Source: Eledone cirrhosa
Lineage: Eukaryota
Reading direction: 5' to 3'
NCBI GenBank assembly: GCA_964016885.1
Contig: OZ024745.1
Coordinates: 30,876,001-30,940,000 of the forward strand
DNA: 64,000 nucleotides
Within the stretch, counting starts at the first letter, position 1. Every line of letters begins with the position of its first letter. Under the pieces are notes generated by a model. That model did not search any database. It worked only from the letters and a program-made list of their open reading frames with translations, and was not told the DNA's origin. Both the position numbers and the translations under genes were made by a program. Positions 1,928-60,938 of this stretch are shown here, piece after piece.

Positions 1928-2008
1928 GAGGGTGTGGTAAGATACCAGGTGGACCAGCTGTCGAAACGGCCACAGCTCAGTCATCGGTGTCCTGACTCTT
2001 TTCCTATA
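1928..2008. mobile_element. Family C (half-hammerhead PLE-like repeat), collapsed copy
   Basis: GTGTGGTAAGATACCAGGTGGACCA joined directly to GCTGTCGAAACGGC...; homologous to 47058-47274. Confidence 0.6.
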
Positions 2009-4698: not shown

Positions 4699-5266
<568 letters not shown>

Positions 5267-11480: not shown

Positions 11481-11484
<4 letters not shown>

Positions 11485-11571
11485 GGAACAAGTATGACCC
11501 ACTCTACTACCCTAAGTATTGAGTACTTTGGTGCGTTATGGTCCATCTGGTTCCTTACCACATTTCCTTCG

Positions 11572-11575
<4 letters not shown>
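11481..11575. mobile_element. Family C, collapsed copy
   Basis: Left-arm piece ATAGGAACAAGTATGACCC fused through ACCC to the downstream tail ACTCTACTACCCTAAGTATTGAGTAC... Confidence 0.7.
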
Positions 11576-12497: not shown

Positions 12498-12830
12498 TAC
12501 ATCGTTTGCATGAACCGTTTTCGAATAGAGTAATAATATTTATGAAAGCCACAACAAAGCATGTATGGAAATAAGAAGTGTAAACAGAAGCAAAGTTACA
12601 AGTGAAGAGAATGGTTCATATGTTGACCTTTTATTACAATATTTCGGATTTAAAAGCCGACTACTATTAAGAAAGCGGAAGACGAGCTCGCTTCATCTAC
12701 AAATATCAAAATCGCAAAACCCGAAGACAGTAAGCTGTCAACGTAAAAGCCGCACTCCGACTGGTATTATATTCTATCGATCCCAGAAATATGTATATAT
12801 GTATGTATGTATGTATGTATGTCAGGTCAT

Positions 12831-13440
12831 GTCAGGTCACCAGTTGGTGCTACTGGTAACATGTATCCCAGTACAACCTGTCTCATGGTCGGGTCGTTGG
12901 CGACTAAACTGGCAACCCCACCAAGGTTTCTTGGTGAGGAGGGTGACTTTGGACATCCTGCAAGACTAAAAACAAAACCTGTCAAAGGGCAAAGGAGCTC
13001 TTAAGAGTCAATGGCCATCCAAAATCACCGGGAGAGATGACCCCTTAGCCTTTGTCAAGGCAGAATTCTAGGAGAAGGAAAACTCTGATATAACACCTGC
13101 AACCCTGATGGTATCCAATGATGTTGACTTGTTCTTCGTTTTGGTAAATATCATCTTGGTTAAGAGAGTGGGACTGGCTTTGTGCAGTGCCTTTGCTCAC
13201 TATAAAAGCTTCACGGCACAGGCATTGCTTTATATCTGGAGATCTCTCTGCACTTGTCGTCACATGGTACCATGGGCCCAGCACTATGTGTCAATAATTG
13301 TCACAGGTGTAGTGTTTGTACCAGAGTTTTCAAGTCGCTGACTGGACGAAAAAGTCACACTCGTTCAGCGCATCGGTAGGGGTTCTCCTACATGGATATA
13401 AAGTAGTGGCCGTACTCGAAAACGAGTTGGCAGCCACCAT
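12831..13440 (+). mobile_element. Family A copy 3, full length (about 610 bp), bipartite RTE-derived
   Basis: 5' part is homologous to the RTE 5'UTR at 34905-35322; 3' part encodes C..C.RVFKSL..LKSH..SAH like the RTE C-terminal zinc finger; (GTAT)n on both sides. Confidence 0.88.
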
Positions 13441-13477
13441 GTATGTATGTTTCTTTGTATGTATGTATGTATTATAT

Positions 13478-14254
13478 GTCGGGTCACTCTTGAGTGCTAC
13501 TGGTAATATGTAACCCAGTACAACCTGTCGCATGGCCGGATCGTTGGCGACTAAACCGGCAACCCCACTAACTTTACTTGGTGAGGAGGGTGATTTTGGA
13601 CATCCTGCAGGACAAAAAACAAAACCTTACAAAGGGCGAAAGAACTCATAAGAGTCAACGGCTATCCAAAAATGTGTAAATATGTATATACACATGTACA
13701 TATGTATGTATATATGTATATGCATGTGTGCGTATATATGTGTATATATGTATATGCATGTATATGTATGTATATGCCCGGAAACATAGAAATAGTTGGG
13801 CTGGATACCCAATCGCGTGGTTAAACCACTGGGAATGAAGGACCCCTAGCCTTTGTCAGGGCATTCTTCTAGGAAAAGGCAACTCGGGAAACTAGGATAA
13901 CTCCGATATAAAACCTGCGGCTCAGTAGTTACCGATGATGTTGATCTTTTCTTCTTTTCGGGTTATAGCTACTGTCACTCAGAGAGTGGGATTGGCTCAG
14001 TGTACAGTCTTTCCTCACTTTAAAAAAATCTTCACGCACAGGCATTACATGATAGACTTAATTAATTGTTTCTACTTTAGGCACAAGGCCAGCAATTACC
14101 CAGTACATTACTGGTACTTTATTTTATCGACCCCGTAAGGATGAAAGGCAAAGTTAACCTCGGCGGGATTTGAACTCTGTAGAATTAATTAATAATTATT
14201 AATAATGGTATATCGTGCAACGGCTATACTCGATAACGAGGGGGCAGCCATCAT
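13478..14254 (+). mobile_element. Family B bipartite RTE-derived element interrupted by a SINE
   Basis: About 13590-14022 closely matches 34905-35322 (minus strand); 3' tail ...CTCGATAACGAGGGGGCAGCCATCAT + (GTAT)n; a second tail copy at 19051-19126 (minus). Confidence 0.8.
14067..14178 (-). mobile_element. 5'-truncated tRNA-SINE nested in family B
   Basis: TSD AGACTTAATTAAT (14054-14066) / AGAATTAATTAAT (14181-14193). Confidence 0.8.
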
Positions 14255-18273: not shown

Positions 18274-18307
18274 ACATACATACATACATACATACATACA
18301 TACATAC

Positions 18308-18912
18308 ATGGTGGCTGCCAACTCGTTTTCGAGTACGGCCACTACTTTATATCCATGTAGGAGAACTCCTACCGATGCGCTGAACGAGTGTGACTTTTTA
18401 GTCCAGACAGCGACTTGAAAACTCTGGTACAAACACTACACTTGTGACAATTATTGACACATAGTGCTGGGCCCATGATACCATGTGATGACAAGTGCAG
18501 AGAGATCTCCAGATATAAAAAATGCCTGTGCCGTGAAGCTTTTATAGTGAGCAAAGGCACTGCACAAAGCCAGTCCCACTCTCTTAAACAAGATGATATT
18601 TACTAAAAAGAAGAACAAGTCAACATCATTGGATACCATCAGAGTTGCAGGTGTTATATCAGAGTTTTCCTTCTCCTAGAATTCTGCCTTGACAAAGGCT
18701 AAGGGGTCATCTCTCCCGGTGATTTTGGATGGCCATTGACTCTTAAGAGCTCCTTTGCCCTTTGACAGGTTTTGTTTTTAGTCCTGCAGGATGTCCAAAG
18801 TCACCCTCCTCACCAAGAAACCTTGGTGGGGTTGCCAGTTTAGTCGCCAACGACCCGACCATGAGACAGGTTGTACTGGGATACATGTTACCAGTAGCAC
18901 CAACTGGTGACC
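18308..18912 (-). mobile_element. Family A copy 4
   Basis: Reverse complement of 12831-13440; (CATA)n flanks. Confidence 0.88.
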
Positions 18913-18913
18913 A

Positions 18914-18947
<34 letters not shown>

Positions 18948-20671: not shown

Positions 20672-21078
20672 GGGAGAGATGACCCCTTAGCCTTTGTCAA
20701 GGCAGAATTCTAGGAGAAGGAAAACTCTGATATAACACCTGCAACCCTGATGGTATCCAATGATGTTGACTTGTTCTTCTTTTTGGTAAATATCATCTTG
20801 GTTAAGAGAGTGGGACTGGCTTTGTGCAGTGCCTTTTCTCACTATAAAAGCTTCACGGCACAGGCATTGCTTTATATCTGGAGATCTCTCTGCACTTGTC
20901 GTCACATGGTACCATGGGCCCAGCACTATGTGTCAATAATTGTCACAAGTGTAGTGTTTGTACCAGAGTTTTCAAGTCGCTGGCTGGACTAAAAAGTCAC
21001 ATTCGTTCAGCGCATCGGTAGGGGTTCTCCTACATGGATATAAAGTAGTGGCCGTACTCGAAAACGAGTTGGCAGCCA

Positions 21079-21082
<4 letters not shown>
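20672..21082 (+). mobile_element. Family A copy 5 (5'-truncated)
   Basis: Matches 13030-13440. Confidence 0.88.
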
Positions 21083-21135
<53 letters not shown>

Positions 21136-39540: not shown

Positions 39541-39886
39541 GTATGTATGTATATATATATGTATATATATATGTATGTATGTATCTACATATGTATATAT
39601 ACTTATATGTGCGTGTGTGGGCGAAGTGGTGTTCGTGTGTGAGTGTGTAAATGTGTGCCTGCTGAAAGACACTAGGAAATGTTAAATGGGACAGGCACAC
39701 GTACAATTACGCACACGTACAATTACACACACACACAATCAACAAATGGTAGTTATCTAGCTTGTTTATTATTCCTATCAACAACTTGTATTGAATACCT
39801 TTACTAGTTTACCTGCTCTGTGTACAAATTCCACCTTACCTAAACTTCTAAATCCATTTATATGAATTATCAAAAGAAAATGATAC

Positions 39887-40499
39887 GTCCGGCCAATAGT
39901 GACCACAAGTAGCTTACCAGTGTGTTGATTGGTCAATCTCATGTCCGGCCAATAGTGACCACAAGTAGCTTACCAGTGTGTTGATTGGTCAATCTCATGT
40001 CTAGCCAGTAGTGACCACAAGTAGCTTACCAGTGTGTTGATTGGTCAATCTCATGTCTAGCCAGTAGTGACCACAAGTAGCTTACCAATGTGTTGATTGG
40101 TCAATCTCATGTCCGGCCAATAGTGACCACAGGCAGCTGGCCAGTGTATTGATTGGTCAATCTCATGTCTAGCCAATAGTGACCACAAGTAGCTTACCAG
40201 TGTGTTGATTGGTCAATCTCATGTCTAGCCAGTAGTGACCACAAGTAGCTTACCAGTGTGTTGATTGGTCAATCTCATGTCTAGCCAGTAGTGACCACAA
40301 GTAGCTTACCAGTGTGTTGATTGGTCAATCTCATGTCTAGCCAGTAGTGACCACAAGTAGCTTACCAGTGTGTTGATTGGTCAATCTCATGTCTAGCCAG
40401 TAGTGACCACAAGTAGCTTACCAGTGTGTTGATTGGTCAATCTCATGTCTAGCCAGTAGTGACCACAAGTAGCTTACCAGTGTGTTGATTGGTCAATCT
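39887..40499. repeat. 56-bp minisatellite, 11 units
   Basis: Unit GTCTAGCCAGTAGTGACCACAAGTAGCTTACCAGTGTGTTGATTGGTCAATCTCAT; no spacers. Confidence 0.97.
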
Positions 40500-40958
40500 T
40501 CTGGAGAATTTGTCCAGTTTTGCAAACTGTAGTTTAAAACAAACTGAGGTGATTTGTATACGTTGGTCTAGCTTTATTTGAACTCAAATCTAGCAAACCT
40601 ATACCGAAAGAGAATCCAGCCGTGATCATCACACCTTTATGTCTATCAAAGACCATATTAGTCAATGTGTTTTACCTCTTTGTTTTAAAACTATAATGGT
40701 AAGGGAAATTTGACTGCTATTGCTAGTATATCATGTCATCTCATAGAGGCTCCTTGTGGTAATAGTATATAATAGTTGTTTTGGTTGCGTTACAAATGTT
40801 GTAGAATCTATAACTGTCCAGTAGATATTATACCAAAAAAATGGTGTTACAGGATTTGTAGGCTGCAAATAAAACAAGCGATGAATTTAATCTTTTTTTT
40901 CGAGATCGATATATAAAATATTAGTCCTGTACCCCCCCCCCCCCTCTCTCACTCACTT

Positions 40959-41636: not shown

Positions 41637-41866
41637 GTTTTTAGACTTTTTTTAGGAGAGGAAGTTATATAGAGGGAAGTTATATAGAGAATAAAGATGA
41701 GCAAGGATTTAAATTTAGTCATTTAACTGATTTGCGACCATTTCGTTAGACTAACTGGAATGGTCTTTGCCTTTATATGGTTGTATTATCAACTCATTTA
41801 AACTCTTATATATACACATAGATACATGCATATATATATTGAGAACTTCTCATACACATATATATA

Positions 41867-42035
41867 CGGCAGAGCTCTTGCCGTTTCAATAGCTAGTTCC
41901 TACACTCTGGAACTAGCTGTTGAAACGGCAAGAGCTCATAGTCATAGTCGGGTCCTGACTCTTTATAATATAACCATACTATATTACCCCAAGTATCGAG
42001 TACTCTGTTGAGTAATGGTCTAACCAGTTTCAAAC
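41867..42035. mobile_element. Family C-related foldback with 3' half hammerhead (related single-arm copies 44708-44835, 56600-56670)
   Basis: GAGCTCTTGCCGTTTCAATAGCTAGTTCC-loop-GGAACTAGCTGTTGAAACGGCAAGAGCTC. Confidence 0.75.
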
Positions 42036-42051
42036 TGAATCCATCAGGATT

Positions 42052-42552
<501 letters not shown>

Positions 42553-44675: not shown

Positions 44676-44708
<33 letters not shown>

Positions 44709-44955
44709 GAACTAGCTGCTGGTGAAACGACAAGAGCCCAGCAGTCGGGCCCTAACTCTTTCTAATATAGTCATACTCCACTAACACAAGTATCGAGTAC
44801 TCCGTTGAATAAGGGTCTAACTAGTTTAAAACTAGAGAGAGGAGAGAGAGAGGGAGAGAGAGAGAGAGAGGGGGGGAGAGAGAGAGAGAGAGAGAGAGAG
44901 AGGGATAGAGAGGGATAGAGAGAGAGAGAGGGGGAGAGATAGAGAGAGAGAGAGA

Positions 44956-46728: not shown

Positions 46729-47057
46729 CATACTCGTATGTACATATATATATTTATATATAGTAATAATAATAAATTTGAAGACTAAAATCCAAAGAGG
46801 GCTCGATAAGGATAAATATATATCAAATATATAAGAGCCGTAGAGAAAATATTTATTAAAATAACAGATTAAAGTTTAAGCAAAGAATCGCTGCTTTCAC
46901 CCTTAACGGGATCTTCTGAAACTCTGAGTTTCAGAATTTGCAGTATAGCAATATAAGGTTGTACTTACCAATGAAACGGTCGTAAATACCTGGATAAAAT
47001 CCTTTTCTTAATGCTTACCTGTGTTTTCTCTTTTATATATATATATATATATATATA

Positions 47058-47274
47058 AGAAAGGAATTGTGGTAAGGAACCAGATGGACCATAACGCACC
47101 AGAGTACTCAATACTTAGGGTAGTAGAGTGGGAAATAGGAACAAGTATGACCCCGACGGCAGAATTCAAGCCGTTTCGACGGCTATTTCTGGACTAAATT
47201 AAAATTGTAATTTAGTCCAGAAATAGCCGTCGAAACGGCTTGAGCTCTGCCGTCGGGGTCATACTTGTTCCTAT
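47058..47274. mobile_element. Family C foldback, best-preserved copy
   Basis: Arms 47135-47200 / about 47209-47274; contains AGCCGTC-GAAA-CGGC-TTGAGCTCT-GCCG-TC-GGGGTC; (TA)n on both sides. Confidence 0.88.
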
Positions 47275-47284
47275 ATATCTATAT

Positions 47285-47322
<38 letters not shown>

Positions 47323-47330
<8 letters not shown>

Positions 47331-47796
47331 ATACTTGGGGAGGGTCATATTGATTGTTGTAATACTATTGCCAGAACACACGGACTGTTTCGTTGGTTTT
47401 CGCTTCTACATCTTTTATATCTCCTTAGTTAATTCATTTGGCCATCAATGTTTATCATTGACTGACCAACGGTCAAAAATACAGATATAAATATATATAT
47501 ATATAGTCTAAGAAAGTTCTTTCGTTACACATCTGCAACATCATCAGTGGTACTATTATCATGTTTCCTCCTATTGTGTCGTGTTTACGCCATTTTTATT
47601 TTATCTATTTATTTATTTATTTATTTATTTATTTTTGTCTCCGTCTCTGCGTATGCGTTTGCGTGTGTGTATAGTGTTTGGCGTGTGTGTTCTGTTATTA
47701 TTTCTGGCAATAGTATTACAACAATATGACCCTCCCCAAGTATAATAATATTTGTTTCGACACACGATTTCATATCAAAAACCTCGCAAAACAAAT
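47323..47796. mobile_element. Non-coding PLE derivative related to the 51714-53990 element; degenerate hammerhead at 47505-47551 (minus)
   Basis: Inverted ends carrying ATGACCCTCCCCAAGTATAA; shared tail ACACACGATTTCA; minus strand CTGATGA-T-GTTGCA..TGTAAC-GAAA. Confidence 0.75.
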
Positions 47797-49897: not shown

Positions 49898-49934
<37 letters not shown>

Positions 49935-49937
<3 letters not shown>

Positions 49938-50085
49938 CGAAGGAAATGTGGTAAGGAACCAGGTGGACCATAACGCACCAAAGTACTCAATACTTAGGGT
50001 AGTAGAGTGGGTAATAGGAACGAATAGGACTCCGACGGCAAAGAATTAGTCCAGAATTAGCCGTCGAAACGGCCTGAGCTCAGCT
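49935..50085. mobile_element. Family C, collapsed foldback copy
   Basis: Left arm ends at GACTCCGACGGCA, then TTAGTCCAGAATTAGCCGTCGAAACGGC. Confidence 0.8.
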
Positions 50086-50276
50086 ATATATATATATATA
50101 TATATATATATGTGGGGCAATATCGAAGTAGAGTTTAAATATCCATTTATTATGGCTAAGCCTTGTTACTCTGGAGTCTCACCTGCGTACTCACCAGACA
50201 AGACTGGTGAATCCTGTGATTGCGCAGGTGAAACTTTAGAGTAGCAAAGCTCACCAATAGCCATAATAAATGAATG

Positions 50277-51649: not shown

Positions 51650-51721
<72 letters not shown>

Positions 51722-51879
51722 ATACTTTGGGAGGGTCATGTTGCCAATAAGAAACACACGCACCAGTTGCTTTCACTTCAATTTATTATATATTTATAAA
51801 TTTATAAATTTACAAATCTACAAATTTATAAATTTCTGGTTGGTTGGCTGGTTCCACAACCAGATAGTTGTTTATATAT

Positions 51880-51924
51880 AGTCATAGTCCTTTCGTCACA
51901 CACTCTGTGACCTCTTCAGTGACT
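51880..51924 (-). ncRNA. Hammerhead in the inverted left arm
   Basis: Reverse complement of 53729-53773. Confidence 0.8.
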
Positions 51925-51931
51925 GGGGAGA

Positions 51932-53524
51932 ATGATCAGCGAGAGCAAGGTTGAGTTCCGTGGGATTGATACCAGTGAGCTGGGACTTCTACTTAAGCTT
52001 ACCCATAGTAATAGTTACCTAGACACATATGACCTTAGCAACCTGTGCCCTACAAGACCAGCAAGAGGCAGACCACCTACCATTACCTCAATGGCCAAGA
52101 AAACCCACACAGATAGATGGAACGGGTGGACCAGAGCCATACGGACACCCGAAAACCACGATGAACTGAAGAAAATGATTGCACATGCGGTAGGGGCCAG
52201 CATAAAATTAACCCTTAAGGAACATATGTTCAAATTTAATGGAAAAACATATGCCCAAGAGGAAGGAGCAGCTATTGGTGTTAGCATTGCAGGCGACATA
52301 GCTAACTTATTCATGGTATGGTGGGACAGTAGACTTAAATTTAAACTTAAAGAACAATTAGAAGACAGCTTAACCCTGATAATGTACTCCCGCTACGTAG
52401 ATGATATAAACATCGTAGTTAAGATACCCCCACTAGAGAACAGTCAGGAACTAGAGAAAAACACAATGGAAAGCATCCAGCAAATAGCAAACTCCATCCA
52501 CCAGAGCATTAGAGTTACTATAGACTACCCAAGTAGACACCCCAACCATCGATTACCTGTACTAGACACAGAGCTCTGGTTAGATACCATTAACAACCAA
52601 AAACAAATCCTCCATTCCCATTATGCCAAACCCATGACTTCCAAACATCTGATCCACCGAAACTCGGCCATTTCGGACCATACCAAAATCAACATACTGA
52701 TTGCGGATTTGGTACGGGTGATGAGAAATGTGTCCCGCATGTGCAACCCCGAAGAACTAGAGAGACACATACAACACTTCATCCACCGTATGCAGTTCTC
52801 TGGCTACAATCAGAGAGATAGAATCAGAGTGTATAGAGGAGCCAGAACCAAATGGGAAAAAATGGTAAATAATGACATAAATGGGACCTGCCCCTTGTAT
52901 AGGAGCAACTTTTGGAATAGAATAGAAAGAACTAGGAACAAGGCCAATAGAATAAACTCATGGTATGATAGCAATAAATACCAGAGTGTAATGTTCATCG
53001 ATACAACCCCTAGAGGCGAACTAGCCTACAAATTTAGAAGGGCCCTAAATAAACATAAACTCAATATTAAGATAGTAGAAAGACCAGGTACCTCCGTAAA
53101 AACACTTATTAGCAAGACATACCCGTTCCAAAGACCCTCATGTATAGATAAGAAATGTATAACCTGTAAAATAAGCCCCCATATTAACTGTAAAACTAGA
53201 AATGTAGTGTATAGCATAAGATGTACTGAAGGACAATGTAGAAACAAAAATATAGTGTACATAGGTGAGACAGCTCGTAGTATAGGGGAACGGATAAATA
53301 AACACTGGCGAGACCTTCAAGATAATAAAGAATCATCTGTACTCTACCAACATGCTAAGATAGAACACAAGGGTAAATTAGAGAACATAGAAATAAAAAT
53401 AGAATCTACACACAGAAAAGATGCAATGTTTAGACAAATTACAGAGGCAATAAACATAAAAGAATTACAACCAAAATTAAATAAAAAATATGAGTGGAAC
53501 AGCAACATCACAACTTACAATTAA
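51932..53524 (+). CDS. PLE protein, C-terminal RT half plus GIY-YIG endonuclease (530 aa open)
   Basis: YAQEEGAAIG, RYVDDI, LPVLD, thumb domain, C-x4-C-x2-C linker, NVVYSIRC...YIGETARSIGERINKH...H...EAINI...P.LN; upstream RT motifs missing. Confidence 0.92.
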   Translation: MISESKVEFRGIDTSELGLLLKLTHSNSYLDTYDLSNLCPTRPARGRPPTITSMAKKTHTDRWNGWTRAIRTPENHDELKKMIAHAVGASIKLTLKEHMFKFNGKTYAQEEGAAIGVSIAGDIANLFMVWWDSRLKFKLKEQLEDSLTLIMYSRYVDDINIVVKIPPLENSQELEKNTMESIQQIANSIHQSIRVTIDYPSRHPNHRLPVLDTELWLDTINNQKQILHSHYAKPMTSKHLIHRNSAISDHTKINILIADLVRVMRNVSRMCNPEELERHIQHFIHRMQFSGYNQRDRIRVYRGARTKWEKMVNNDINGTCPLYRSNFWNRIERTRNKANRINSWYDSNKYQSVMFIDTTPRGELAYKFRRALNKHKLNIKIVERPGTSVKTLISKTYPFQRPSCIDKKCITCKISPHINCKTRNVVYSIRCTEGQCRNKNIVYIGETARSIGERINKHWRDLQDNKESSVLYQHAKIEHKGKLENIEIKIESTHRKDAMFRQITEAINIKELQPKLNKKYEWNSNITTYN

Positions 53525-53728
53525 GGACAAAATGAAAACACACACACACATAGAACAAACAACCAACCAATAACATGTAAATAAATAAACAAATAGATAA
53601 ATGAACACAAACACACACAGACACCCGGATGTGGCGCATGCGCAAACTGAGCACACAACACACACACAGAAACAAAATGGCGTAGGACAGAAGAAAGGAA
53701 AGGCACAGAAACAAAGAAAGGAATCCCC

Positions 53729-53773
53729 AGTCACTGAAGAGGTCACAGAGTGTGTGACGAAAGGACTATGACT
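53729..53773 (+). ncRNA. Type I hammerhead in the PLE 3'UTR/pLTR
   Basis: AGTCA-CTGAAGA-G-GTCAC AGAGTGT GTGAC-GAAA-GGAC-TA-TGACT. Confidence 0.82.
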
Positions 53774-54247
53774 ATATATAAACAACTATCTGGTTGTGGA
53801 ACCAACCAACCAACCAGAAATTTATAAATTTGTAGATTTGTAAATTTATAAATTTATAAATATATAATAAATTGAAGTGAAAGCAACTGGTGCGTGTGTT
53901 TCTTATTGGCAACATGACCCTCCCAAAGTATAACAATATCGGTTTCAACACACGATTTCAGATAAAGAATCTTGCTAAACAAATTCAGAAACGAAATATA
54001 TATATACATGTGTGTGTGTGTTTCATTAGTGTAATATAGGTGTTTGTTGTTGACCTCGCTCCAATTTCTCTTCTATTAGATACTGTTTCATACTCAAAGC
54101 CCTCTGTGTCTGCTAAGAATGATAAAACTGCTAGAGACTGACAGCTCGGCCAGTGCAGAAATTGTGGCTTTTTATCTGCTGCACGCTTTTCATAATGGTG
54201 GAATTTAAATTTAGTTTAGTTATGAGAGAAGTTTACGTTTCATTGTA

Positions 54248-55309: not shown

Positions 55310-55556
55310 TATACAACCCACACAATGATTTATGGCTGTTTTCATTTTCTTAATAGCAAGGAATGTAGTTTGTCTGTGTATTCATGTCTAGCCATATTCG
55401 TCCTCCTACAGGAGGATTTTTACTGTCAATATATATATGCATACATAGATACATACATATATATACATAGATACATGCGTACACACGCATACATACATAC
55501 ATACATACATACATACATACATACATACATACATACATACATACATACATACATAC

Positions 55557-56166
55557 ATGGTGGCTGCCAACTCGTTTTCGAGTACGGCCACTACTTTATA
55601 TCCATGTAGGAGAACCCCTACCGATGCGCTGAACGAGTGTGACTTTTTAGTCCAGCCAGCGACTTGAAAACTCTGGTACAAACACTACACCTGTGACAAT
55701 TATTGATACTTAGTGCTGGACCGATGGTACCATGTGACGACAAGTGCAGAGAGATCTCCAGATATAAAGCAATGCCTGTGCCGTGAAGCTTTTATAGTGA
55801 GCAAAGGCACTGCACAAAGCCAGTCCCACTCTCTTAACTAAGATGATATTTACCAAAAAGAAGAACAAGTCAACATCATTGGATACCATCAGGGTTGCAG
55901 GTGTTATATCAGAGTTTTCCTTCTCCTAGAATTCTGCCTTGACAAAGGCTAAGGGGTCATCTCTCCCAGTGATTTTGGATGCCCATTGACTCTTAAGAGC
56001 TCCTTTGCCCTTTGACAGGTTTTGTTTTTAGTCCTGCAGGATGTCCAAAGTCACCCTCCTCACCAAGAAACCTTGGTGGGTTTGCCAGTTTAGTTGCCAA
56101 CGACCCGACTATGAGACAGGTTGTACTGGGATACATGTTACCAGTAGCACCAACTGGTGATCTGAC
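55557..56166 (-). mobile_element. Family A copy 6
   Basis: Full-length reverse complement; (CATA)n flanks. Confidence 0.88.
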
Positions 56167-56245
56167 ATACATACATACATACATACATACATACATACAT
56201 ACATACATACATACATACATACATACATACATACATACATACATA

Positions 56246-56582: not shown

Positions 56583-56680
56583 ATACATGTAATTTTTCAT
56601 ATTACCCATTCTACTATTCCAAGTATTGAGTACTCTGGTGAGTAATGGTCTAACTGGTTCTTACCACCTCCATTTCTGAT

Positions 56681-58033: not shown

Positions 58034-58075
58034 CTTCAAAATGTTAATAAATATAGACATTCATGTGATCAAATA

Positions 58076-58141
58076 TATTTTATTATACATATTTCAGAGA
58101 TACTGAGGTATTTCAACAGTACGTCCTCATCAGATAAAATA
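58076..58141 (-). ncRNA. Type I hammerhead, same family as 2332-2397
   Basis: Minus strand: TATTTTAT-CTGATGA-GGACGTACTG..CAGTATCTCT-GAAA-TATGTA-TA-ATAAAATA. Confidence 0.75.
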
Positions 58142-58259
58142 AGTTGATGCCTGACATACCTTGACTATGTTGATGGTTATAATTTAGTCATGGCAGTGAT
58201 TAGTTACGACAAAACTCGATATTTATATACCTTAAGTTGAAACATGAAAAATGTTAAAC

Positions 58260-60139: not shown

Positions 60140-60522
60140 TAAATATTAAAATTTAAATTTAAAAATAAAAAATTCAAAATTAAACGTTCATATTTCGTGT
60201 TGTGAGGTCAAAAAGATCAATATATAATATAATGCGATCATGTGGCTCTATGAGAGAATTAGAGCTAAAAATCCAAGACCTCAGAGCTTTGCACACATCC
60301 AATATCATAGGAAACCACATATCTAATATTTTACTGAGAAAAATCAATTAGGTTAAAAAAATTTACCAACAGAATAAGTATTATACTTCCATAGCCACTA
60401 AGTTTTTATAAGGCCTCCGTGGTACCATTTCGTTCAGCAAAAATCATCATTTACCGTTGATTAACATATATATATGAGCTTCTGGCTTGTATCTGCCGTT
60501 ATTACTTCTTGTTGTTTGAATT

Positions 60523-60560
60523 GCCCTGATGAGTCCTTAATAGGACGAAACATTGTCGGC
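60523..60560 (+). ncRNA. Canonical minimal type I hammerhead (intronic, sense to the host gene)
   Basis: GCC-CTGATGA-GTCCT TAAT AGGAC-GAAA-CATTG-TC-GGC; AATAAA at 60562. Confidence 0.85.
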
Positions 60561-60707
60561 TAATAAAGACTTTTGATGTATTGAAGGCTTCTTTGTTTTA
60601 CTCTCTTAATTTTTCGGCTCTGTTTAACTACATTGAGCTATACCTTTTACTGTCATTTCTATAATACGAAGAGGGTGTTTAACTCCAACACGCTCCAGTA
60701 TTTTAAC

Positions 60708-60750
<43 letters not shown>

Positions 60751-60751
<1 letters not shown>

Positions 60752-60938
60752 CGAAGGAAGTGTGGTAAGGAACCAGATGGACCATAACGCACCAGAGTAC
60801 TCAATACTTAGGGTTGTAGAGTGGGTAATAGGAAAAAGTTCAAGACCCCCGATGGCAGAGCTCAAGCCGTTTCGACGGCTATTTCTGGACTCCAGAAATA
60901 GCCGTCGAAACGGCTTGAGCTATGCCGTCGGAGTCTTG
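60751..60938. mobile_element. Family C foldback (intronic)
   Basis: Arms 60841-60889 / 60891-60938; GAAA-CGGC-TTGAGCTAT-GCCG-TC-GGAGTC. Confidence 0.88.

Follow-up and report, generated by a model that had tools for sequence, protein, structure and literature searches.

Foldback copies of a Penelope-like element in Eledone cirrhosa and a case for fixed-site twin priming on an RNA that probably begins inside its own hammerhead ribozyme

The Hydra clade of Penelope-like elements (PLEs) comprises units that are generally shorter than 3 kb, with hammerhead loops listed as 3-10 nt (File S2 of Craig et al. 2021, PMC8557442). In the available text of that study PLE tails are given as 30-40 nt, and the function of PLE hammerheads is called unclear. 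For the Poseidon element PAc of Anolis, the PLE protein has been shown to cut and extend both target strands in vitro, with RT starting from two internal positions that mark the limits of the tail and with a dimer predicted (Frangieh et al. 2024, PMC11167929). Priming took place without target homology, and the accessible part of the paper reports no reads at the ribozyme cut and draws no link to inverted copies. In L1 twin priming, both sides of the break prime cDNA, and a head-to-head inversion results (Ostertag and Kazazian 2001, as cited in PMC2246262).

Ribozymes and promoters of related elements have also been described. The Cercyon PLEs of Schistosoma carry U3-A8 hammerheads that are minimal motifs and are thought to be dimeric, and cleaved, circular templates have been proposed for their tandems (Cervera and de la Pena 2014, PMC4209133). 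The pLTR of Drosophila virilis Penelope is a promoter with an initiator, transcription starting 46 nt ahead of an intron that ends where helix I of the hammerhead has its 5' end; in the portion of that paper available, no obvious mechanism is seen for pLTR regeneration (Schostak et al. 2008, PMC2377424). The Drosophila initiator is given as TCAGTT (PMC10290830), and in a plant retrozyme the ribozyme removes the transcript's 5' end and prevents its translation (PMC12029980). The locus described below bears on PLE inverted copies, on their tails, on the role of the hammerhead and on pLTR regeneration. A literature search, with subscription papers and the supplement of PMC11167929 (Fig. S2, genomic ends) lying outside it, turned up neither a transcription start placed within a hammerhead nor twin priming by a PLE.

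The window analysed here is a stretch of 64,000 nucleotides from a (TA)n-rich, 3.0-Gb assembly of Eledone cirrhosa, and it contains foldback repeats that, judged from their sequence, are short pLTR insertions of a Penelope-like retrotransposon with Hydra-clade motifs. Positions in the element are numbered on its sense strand, 0 being the first base 3' of the GUC, where the ribozyme is predicted to cut. The copy at 47055..47274 consists of (TA)n, a minus-strand long arm, an inverted short arm and (TA)n again. Its long arm (47055..47201, minus strand) spans pLTR positions -47 to +99, ends in TAT against (TA)n and was matched to the long copies L003 and L194, and its short inverted arm (47201..47274, plus strand) spans about -54 to +19 and ends in TTCCTAT against (TA)n. 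An initiator-like TTAGTC lies in hammerhead loop II at 47212..47217 (plus strand), with a mirror at 47192-47197 on the minus strand; the A at 47214 is position -41, the putative capped start. The 3' strand of stem II follows at 47221..47231 (plus strand, -34 to -24), its partner strand being absent from the copy, and 47232..47258 (plus strand) holds GAAA, stem III, GUC and the stem I 3' strand GGGG. The predicted cut is at 47254/47255, and in the minus-strand mirror of this segment between 47155 and 47154. Both arms carry GAAA-CGGC-loop-GCCG-TC-GGGGTC (GAAA at 47232 on the plus and 47177 on the minus strand), and the one-sided tail of 80 nt (47055..47134, minus strand, +20 to +99) is bounded by two fixed outer ends. 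Three contig runs over 46900-47450 gave loose ends at 47213-47215 and no piece spanning the locus, and are not used as evidence.

The second copy (60748..60938) has a long minus-strand arm reaching -41 at 60891 and a short plus-strand arm from -39/-38 to about +8, with the GAAA-CGGC-loop-GCCG motif, here with GGAGTC, on the plus arm (GAAA at 60907). The third (41866..42052) belongs to an older subfamily; its long plus-strand arm starts from -41 (41904), and the motif is present on the short, minus-strand arm only. The initial annotation had described these three copies, at 47058, 60751 and 41867, as foldbacks, with the continuation TC-GGRGTC in the first two, and both points can be read directly in the window sequence. 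Five further pieces of the family are found at 1932, 11482, 44707, 49937 and 56590. The arms do not overlap at 11482..11575, where the short arm covers +19 to about +1 and the long arm begins at about +21, nor in the older copy at 1932..2007, where the tail end alone is followed by about -31 to +19. At 49934..50087 the long arm starts from about -8 and the short arm extends to -43, 44707..44833 (plus strand) is an older non-inverted copy starting a few bases below -41, and 56590..56667 (plus strand) is an older fragment of tail only. As the annotation had noted, CTGANGA is absent from every family copy in the window, and the intact CTGANGA hammerheads found there belong to other families. It was also right that the repeats keep the 3' half of a genuine hammerhead; the complete ribozyme occurs in long copies. 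The fold point itself, which had been placed at stem II just upstream of GAAA-CGGC-loop-GCCG, lies 7-20 nt further 5', in loop II.

Genome-wide, two mutually exclusive exact tail patterns of 38 and 45 nt gave 7,052 and 15,485 matches, or at least 22,500 tail matches for the pLTR family, and their reversed-pattern controls gave 0, so the family is not due to chance. Sets A and B are the first 90 matches to each pattern along contig C1 (180 copies), set A being the subfamily of the 47058 copy, and an inverted arm is present in 71/90 and 69/90 of them, respectively. Junction classes and several of the counts below were scored by eye, on the first 50-100 entries.

Upstream of the pLTR, long copies contain a pyrimidine-rich 3' UTR and an ORF. 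A protein search, in which 150 of 26,099 candidates were scored, found many of these in open frames of at least 784 codons. The unit of one tandem array is 3,542 nt long and holds an intact 717-aa ORF (ATG at +190) that encodes RT plus GIY-YIG at the C terminus, with the motifs RWR, DKT, YRDD, CxCx5C, CxxC and CxH. A single ORF with FDIESYY, YRDDG and VIYQ...AYIG, in an element with pLTRs, partial tandems, a 5'-truncated inverted copy and a one-sided tail, is that of an EN+ PLE. Features in common with the Hydra clade, as set out in the accessible text of PMC8557442, are the C-terminal GIY-YIG, DKT (117), the CxCx5C linker (CNCPDRSIC, 572), the absence of CCHH, CxxC (CNLC, 670) and CxH (CKH, 698) around E and N, (TA)n targets, a hammerhead in the pLTR, the 5'-truncated inverted copy and the one-sided tail; there is one Cys between VIYQ and AYIG, and RWR replaces the RWK of the clade. 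Unlike the elements described there, this one has a 3.54-kb unit, a tail of 80 nt, a loop II of about 33 nt with an initiator-like motif, a U3-A8 core and copies most of which end inside the ribozyme. The length of the unit lowers the claim only slightly, and the element is, as placed by its motifs, a new family within the known Hydra clade. Assignment to Neptune was rejected on protein motifs. Of 8,000 database candidates scored, 2,031 reached E<=1e-10, the top ones being 38-53% identical, and one candidate among these matches is listed with PF01541; the 717-aa protein itself had no match in Pfam or PDB sequence searches.

Two other classes of element were considered. The repeats are not ordinary TIR MITEs, in keeping with the initial annotation, given an RT master, unequal outer ends (+19 versus +99) and variable inner ends. 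A non-LTR retrozyme was rejected on the grounds that 158/180 sampled long arms end below the core and that the tandems are of a 3.5-kb coding unit. The array of 3.5-kb units also has, at the inner end of an arm, at least 15 tandem repeats of a 55-nt ORF piece (L194:9171-9999). Three set-B copies (L268, L313 and L332) have a common junction at -118, which suggests that they form a derived, non-autonomous subfamily whose ribozyme is complete.

In long copies, and only there, a complete type I hammerhead runs from stem I through a UUGANAA core and stem II, whose loop has about 33 nt, to GAAA, stem III, GUC and stem I again, including the 3-8 pair, UGAN-A, GAAA, NUH and three covarying stems. The UUGANAA core pattern has 2,729 matches, with all four bases at N7 among the first 100, part of the core being preset by the search pattern itself. 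Among 23 natural copies picked for diversity, 88.6% of cells pair and both bases change in 9/19 pairs, the 3-8 pair being C3-G8 in 11 and U3-A8 in 9; the covariation score was reached by 0/500 shuffles, a control that ignores relatedness. This covariation at a U3-A8 core in a PLE terminal repeat recalls Cercyon, as far as the available text of PMC4209133 describes it; unlike Cercyon, the present ribozyme has a full stem III, and its junctions hint, indirectly and from sequence, at cleavage in vivo. The MFE fold of a young copy has hammerhead topology, the fold z-scores of three copies (-0.3, -2.3 and +0.7) being unremarkable in two. The full ribozyme gave no match to Rfam models, and a pattern for older full ribozymes gave 15 matches versus 13 in the control, 8 of them family members on inspection.

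A master with canonical CTGANGA had been expected. It is found for the 41867 subfamily, with CTGATGA (CUGAUGA as RNA) in its long relatives (14/30 by exact parse, 15/29 in a second count), and not for the young subfamilies of 47058 and 60751, which have the U3-A8 core UUGANAA instead; only 31 G8 copies of these occur genome-wide, 10 with C3, and they are scattered. Sub-lineages with a mismatched C3-A8 core (CTGAGAA) were also observed (L224, L229, L268, L079, L089 and L090), accounting for 13 of the first 100 matches to the core pattern, and are possibly weakened ribozymes that still spread. The RNA from -41 is predicted to fold with the 5' half into a full hammerhead (-27.7 kcal/mol, versus -14.8 and -1.0 for the two apart). 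The suggestion that an intact copy could cleave the short copies in trans is thus kept alive by good folding in silico, while the transcript through a short copy is predicted to be a long hairpin (-123.8 kcal/mol), as had been anticipated.

How, then, do the foldbacks arise? In our reading, to which we assign a probability of roughly three in four from genomic sequence, they are formed by twin priming at fixed sites on an RNA whose start likely lies within the hammerhead of the element itself. Pol II would start at the loop II initiator (-41), so that the capped RNA would begin with the substrate half of the ribozyme only, and the copy at the RNA 3' end would be complete. If transcription does start inside the hammerhead, the 5' copy would be unable to remove its own cap in cis, and the loss of the 5' end seen in the plant retrozyme (PMC12029980, available text) would be avoided. 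The endonuclease would cut both (TA)n strands, and RT would prime one strand at the UAU of +99 and the other at the UAU of +19. Both cDNAs would run off the RNA 5' end, in many cases with an extra C copied from the cap, or alternatively run off at a ribozyme-cut 5'-OH end (0), where an A may be added, and the two cDNA ends would be joined head to head by end joining, with microhomology or short inserts. The reading predicts a capped start at -41, a 5'-OH end at 0, and RT initiation at +19 on one strand and at +99 on the other. In common with Penelope of D. virilis, there would be a promoter with an initiator in the pLTR, as described in the accessible text of PMC2377424; the start lies upstream of the ribozyme there and, it appears, inside it here.

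The outer ends are consistent with two fixed priming sites. The short arm ends at +19 in 50/71 set A and 62/69 set B inverted copies, the long arm at +99 in 82/90 set-B copies, and at both ends TAT lies against (TA)n. Forty stretches selected for a long ORF include 19 insertions whose two ends can both be seen, and each of these pairs a +19 with a +99 end (scored by eye). Two-strand priming with starts that bound the tail would be shared with PAc, here on the strength of genomic junctions; in contrast to PAc, as described in the available text of PMC11167929, both ends carry TAT and genomic ends cluster at the cut. Compared with L1 twin priming as outlined in PMC2246262, the priming sites would be fixed and internal, each used once in an insertion, and the arms overlap because the two cDNAs can both extend to the RNA 5' end.

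The inner ends fall at a wall. Of 320 sampled arm ends, 288 lie within -100 to +19, of which 206 are in -48..-33, 72 below this range and 10 in -100..-49; the modes are -42 to -40, and a few assignments to -45 to -48 reflect alignment over-reach. Non-inverted copies end at the same wall in 13/40 cases, and the older 41867 subfamily stops at the same AGTC in the top 30 matches of a query that begins at this point. Inversion points had been expected to track stem II; they are indeed non-random, and cluster near -41 in loop II rather than in stem II. The wall motif is TTAGTC or TCAGTC (TYAGT), kept while the surrounding loop II changes between subfamilies, and it resembles a TCAGTY-like initiator, whose A is the first transcribed base; junctions with an extra C are present in the DNA as well. 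A 3' splice site at TTYAG (-40/-39) was considered and rejected, there being no constant upstream exon in the junctions. Counting against a start at -41 are the spread of inner ends over -48 to -33 and the arms of the 47055-47274 copy, which overshoot it by 6 and 13 nt.

The junction letters distinguish two kinds of end. Genome-wide, with both arms ending at one position and at most 4 letters between them, there are 830 loci at -41 and about 285 at 0, versus 57 and 5 at the control positions -29 and -18. By eye, the first 50 loci at -41 have a single C/G in 18, C on both cDNA ends (spacers CG, CAG/CTG or CCAG) in 11 and no spacer in 9, the remainder being AATT-type (6), single A/T (3), CAGT (1) and other (2). 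The reverse, G...C, which templating from a TCAGT variant would give, occurs in 0 of these 50, and among the -41 spacers of 2-4 letters in the subfamily of the 47058 copy (312 loci) the first 50 hold 16 C...G versus 0 reverse. The first 51 loci at 0 have no spacer in 19, a single A/T in 13, other A/T spacers in 7, one arm extending to -3 in 8 and an extra C in the run in 4. The ratio of single C/G to A/T spacers is accordingly 18:3 at -41 and 1:13 at 0 (p 5e-6). In the older subfamily a single C/G spacer is found in 9/11, a figure that is ambiguous since the -42 base is C. Reverse transcriptases copy the RNA cap as an extra C, a point for which the literature search found no paper. We read -41 as the probable capped 5' end of the RNA and 0 as a probable uncapped end made by the ribozyme. 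Short copies may in this way record, indirectly but at base level, two kinds of RNA 5' end together with two-strand priming.

The peak at 0 differs between subfamilies. It accounts for 10/42 set-B ends between -32 and +19 (p 1e-4) and is weak in the subfamily of the 47058 copy, with 0/161 sampled ends and 30 loci genome-wide. Among the first 100 of 182 entries, 39 ends are at 0 versus 9 at -1, at least 15 of those at 0 being unambiguous, and 4 set-B copies combine an arm that ends at 0 with one that ends further 5'. The haplotype with the weaker stem III (a G-U pair; 43 of the first 51 loci) is the richest in ends at 0, and the subfamily with more of them has a better closed stem II as well. 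Given the better closed stem II and the weaker stem III of this subfamily, cleavage appears to fit the peak better than stalling. The family thus offers a young intact ORF together with subfamilies that differ in their cut-site footprint.

The most serious alternative accepts two cDNAs but takes -41 to be a stop imposed by protein or structure, or a processing site, with the extra C a context-dependent untemplated addition and the peak at 0 a stall at the foot of stem III. That -38 to -45 forms a small hairpin in young subfamilies would suit such a stop, as would the spread of ends over 15 nt. The copies abutting (TA)n are also on its side, since a cap test on the first 100 of 364 found T in 75, G in 12, C in 11 and A in 2, with no excess of G. 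The wall is nonetheless hard to explain as an obstacle. On the first pass about 86% of arms (206/239) stop there, and on the second pass only 1/34 ORF-bearing arms do (by eye, with 5 loci ending below -33 or cut off omitted; p 4e-21 for an earlier count of 1/31), so the -41 sequence itself is no barrier. The retention of TYAGT in subfamilies with an otherwise different loop II also speaks against it, and a stall at stem III runs counter to the excess of ends at 0 over -1 and to their abundance where stem III is weaker. This alternative is, in our estimate, improbable.

Less probable again is fold-back self-priming, in which a new DNA strand would snap back and copy itself at a site set by the ribozyme hairpin; the initial annotation had proposed it with stem II as the primer. 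Diagnostic variants are common to both arms in 38/39 scorable copies, so the arms come from one source, and this would follow from self-copying but is, on sequence grounds, compatible with one RNA or two. Inserts of 7-9 nt that look like snap-back occur at some junctions (L129, L149, L156, L160 and L173), and self-priming on an antisense template has been proposed for head-to-head Penelope palindromes (PMC3846280, available text). Against stem II as the primer, its 3' strand holds only 20/320 arm ends, and its 5' strand is missing from the copies, so that the new DNA could not form that hairpin. The loops of 0-1 base, with an extra C often borne by each arm, are unlike a priming hairpin; across 140 copies the arm junctions show microhomology in 64, inserts in 58 and neither in 18 that are blunt. 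In addition, 5/140 pairs do not overlap, as at 11482 and 1932 in the window, and the short arm often contains sequence absent from the long one: in 44/140 it outreaches the long arm by 10 nt or more on the 5' side (about 6 of them by alignment over-reach), the reverse holding in 12. Later deletion could mimic some of this asymmetry, but would not supply both ends with an extra C. The fixed stop at +19 would call for a signal of its own, and the non-inverted copies that end at the same wall would be left unexplained. An extrachromosomal hairpin or dsDNA intermediate, trimmed by the endonuclease at +19 and +99 and then integrated, is just as doubtful, for although the tail has been attributed to endonuclease resolution of an intermediate (PMC8557442, accessible text) and both ends finish in a target-like TAT, the tail limits of PAc correspond to RT start sites in vitro (PMC11167929, available text), and the model does not itself give two independent inner ends, each with an extra C.

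Twin priming on an RNA with a 5' end at -41 leaves the long copies to be accounted for, which pass -41 into partial tandems. They would come from templates without an end at -41, most likely circles or multimers made by the ribozyme. Retrovirus-like strand transfer, in which the capped-end cDNA moves to the repeat at the RNA 3' end, predicts a G at -42 in long copies; with 5 G versus 4 A at -42, and 3 G versus 2 A at -43, no such signal is seen, and the transfer is therefore unsupported. Ribozyme-released circles or multimers would appear to fit the long copies better. A broader proposal, which we put forward tentatively and with less than even confidence, is that the element splits its own ribozyme, the capped 5' end being the substrate half, cut only by an enzyme half from the far end of that RNA or from another copy. 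The cut would switch a capped message to a template that forms circles, fixed-site twin priming carried out by an RT-endonuclease dimer would explain inversions and one-sided tails in PLEs generally, and thousands of junctions would record cap and cut in vivo.

Other repeats are present in the window, several with hammerheads of their own. A young insertion of another Penelope-like family lies at 51714-53939, with 216-nt arms that are 100% complementary and an intact CTGAAGA hammerhead on each, and with a 5'-truncated ORF of 530 aa for RT and GIY-YIG that has a CxxC linker and two Cys inside GIY-YIG (Neptune-like). Its left arm reaches no further than CCAGTC, which lies about 10 nt above the core and is likewise an initiator-like motif. 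A family end of the 51714 type and a CTGATGA hammerhead (47547, minus strand) are found at 47328-47560 in the same (TA)n cluster as the 47055-47274 copy. About 190 nt from the 60751 copy, 60520-60564 (plus strand) is an intact type I CTGANGA hammerhead of another family, scoring 31.7 bits (E 6e-4) with Rfam Hammerhead_1, below the gathering score of 34. Another head-to-head family at 2160-2420 has intact CTGATGA hammerheads on both arms (2244, minus strand; 2340, plus strand), and a single arm of it, at 58133, is found in 58050-58170. At 42153-42552 there is another near-perfect foldback, with 184-nt arms that are 99% complementary and 32 nt apart. A 56-nt tandem repeat of about 15 units occupies 39775-40614, and the repeat listing of the window is dominated by microsatellites. 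A dispersed repeat of 300-650 nt occurs in both orientations at 84-99% identity (80-522, 4802-5227, 12829-13671, 18276-18919, 20672-21130 and 55509-56169).
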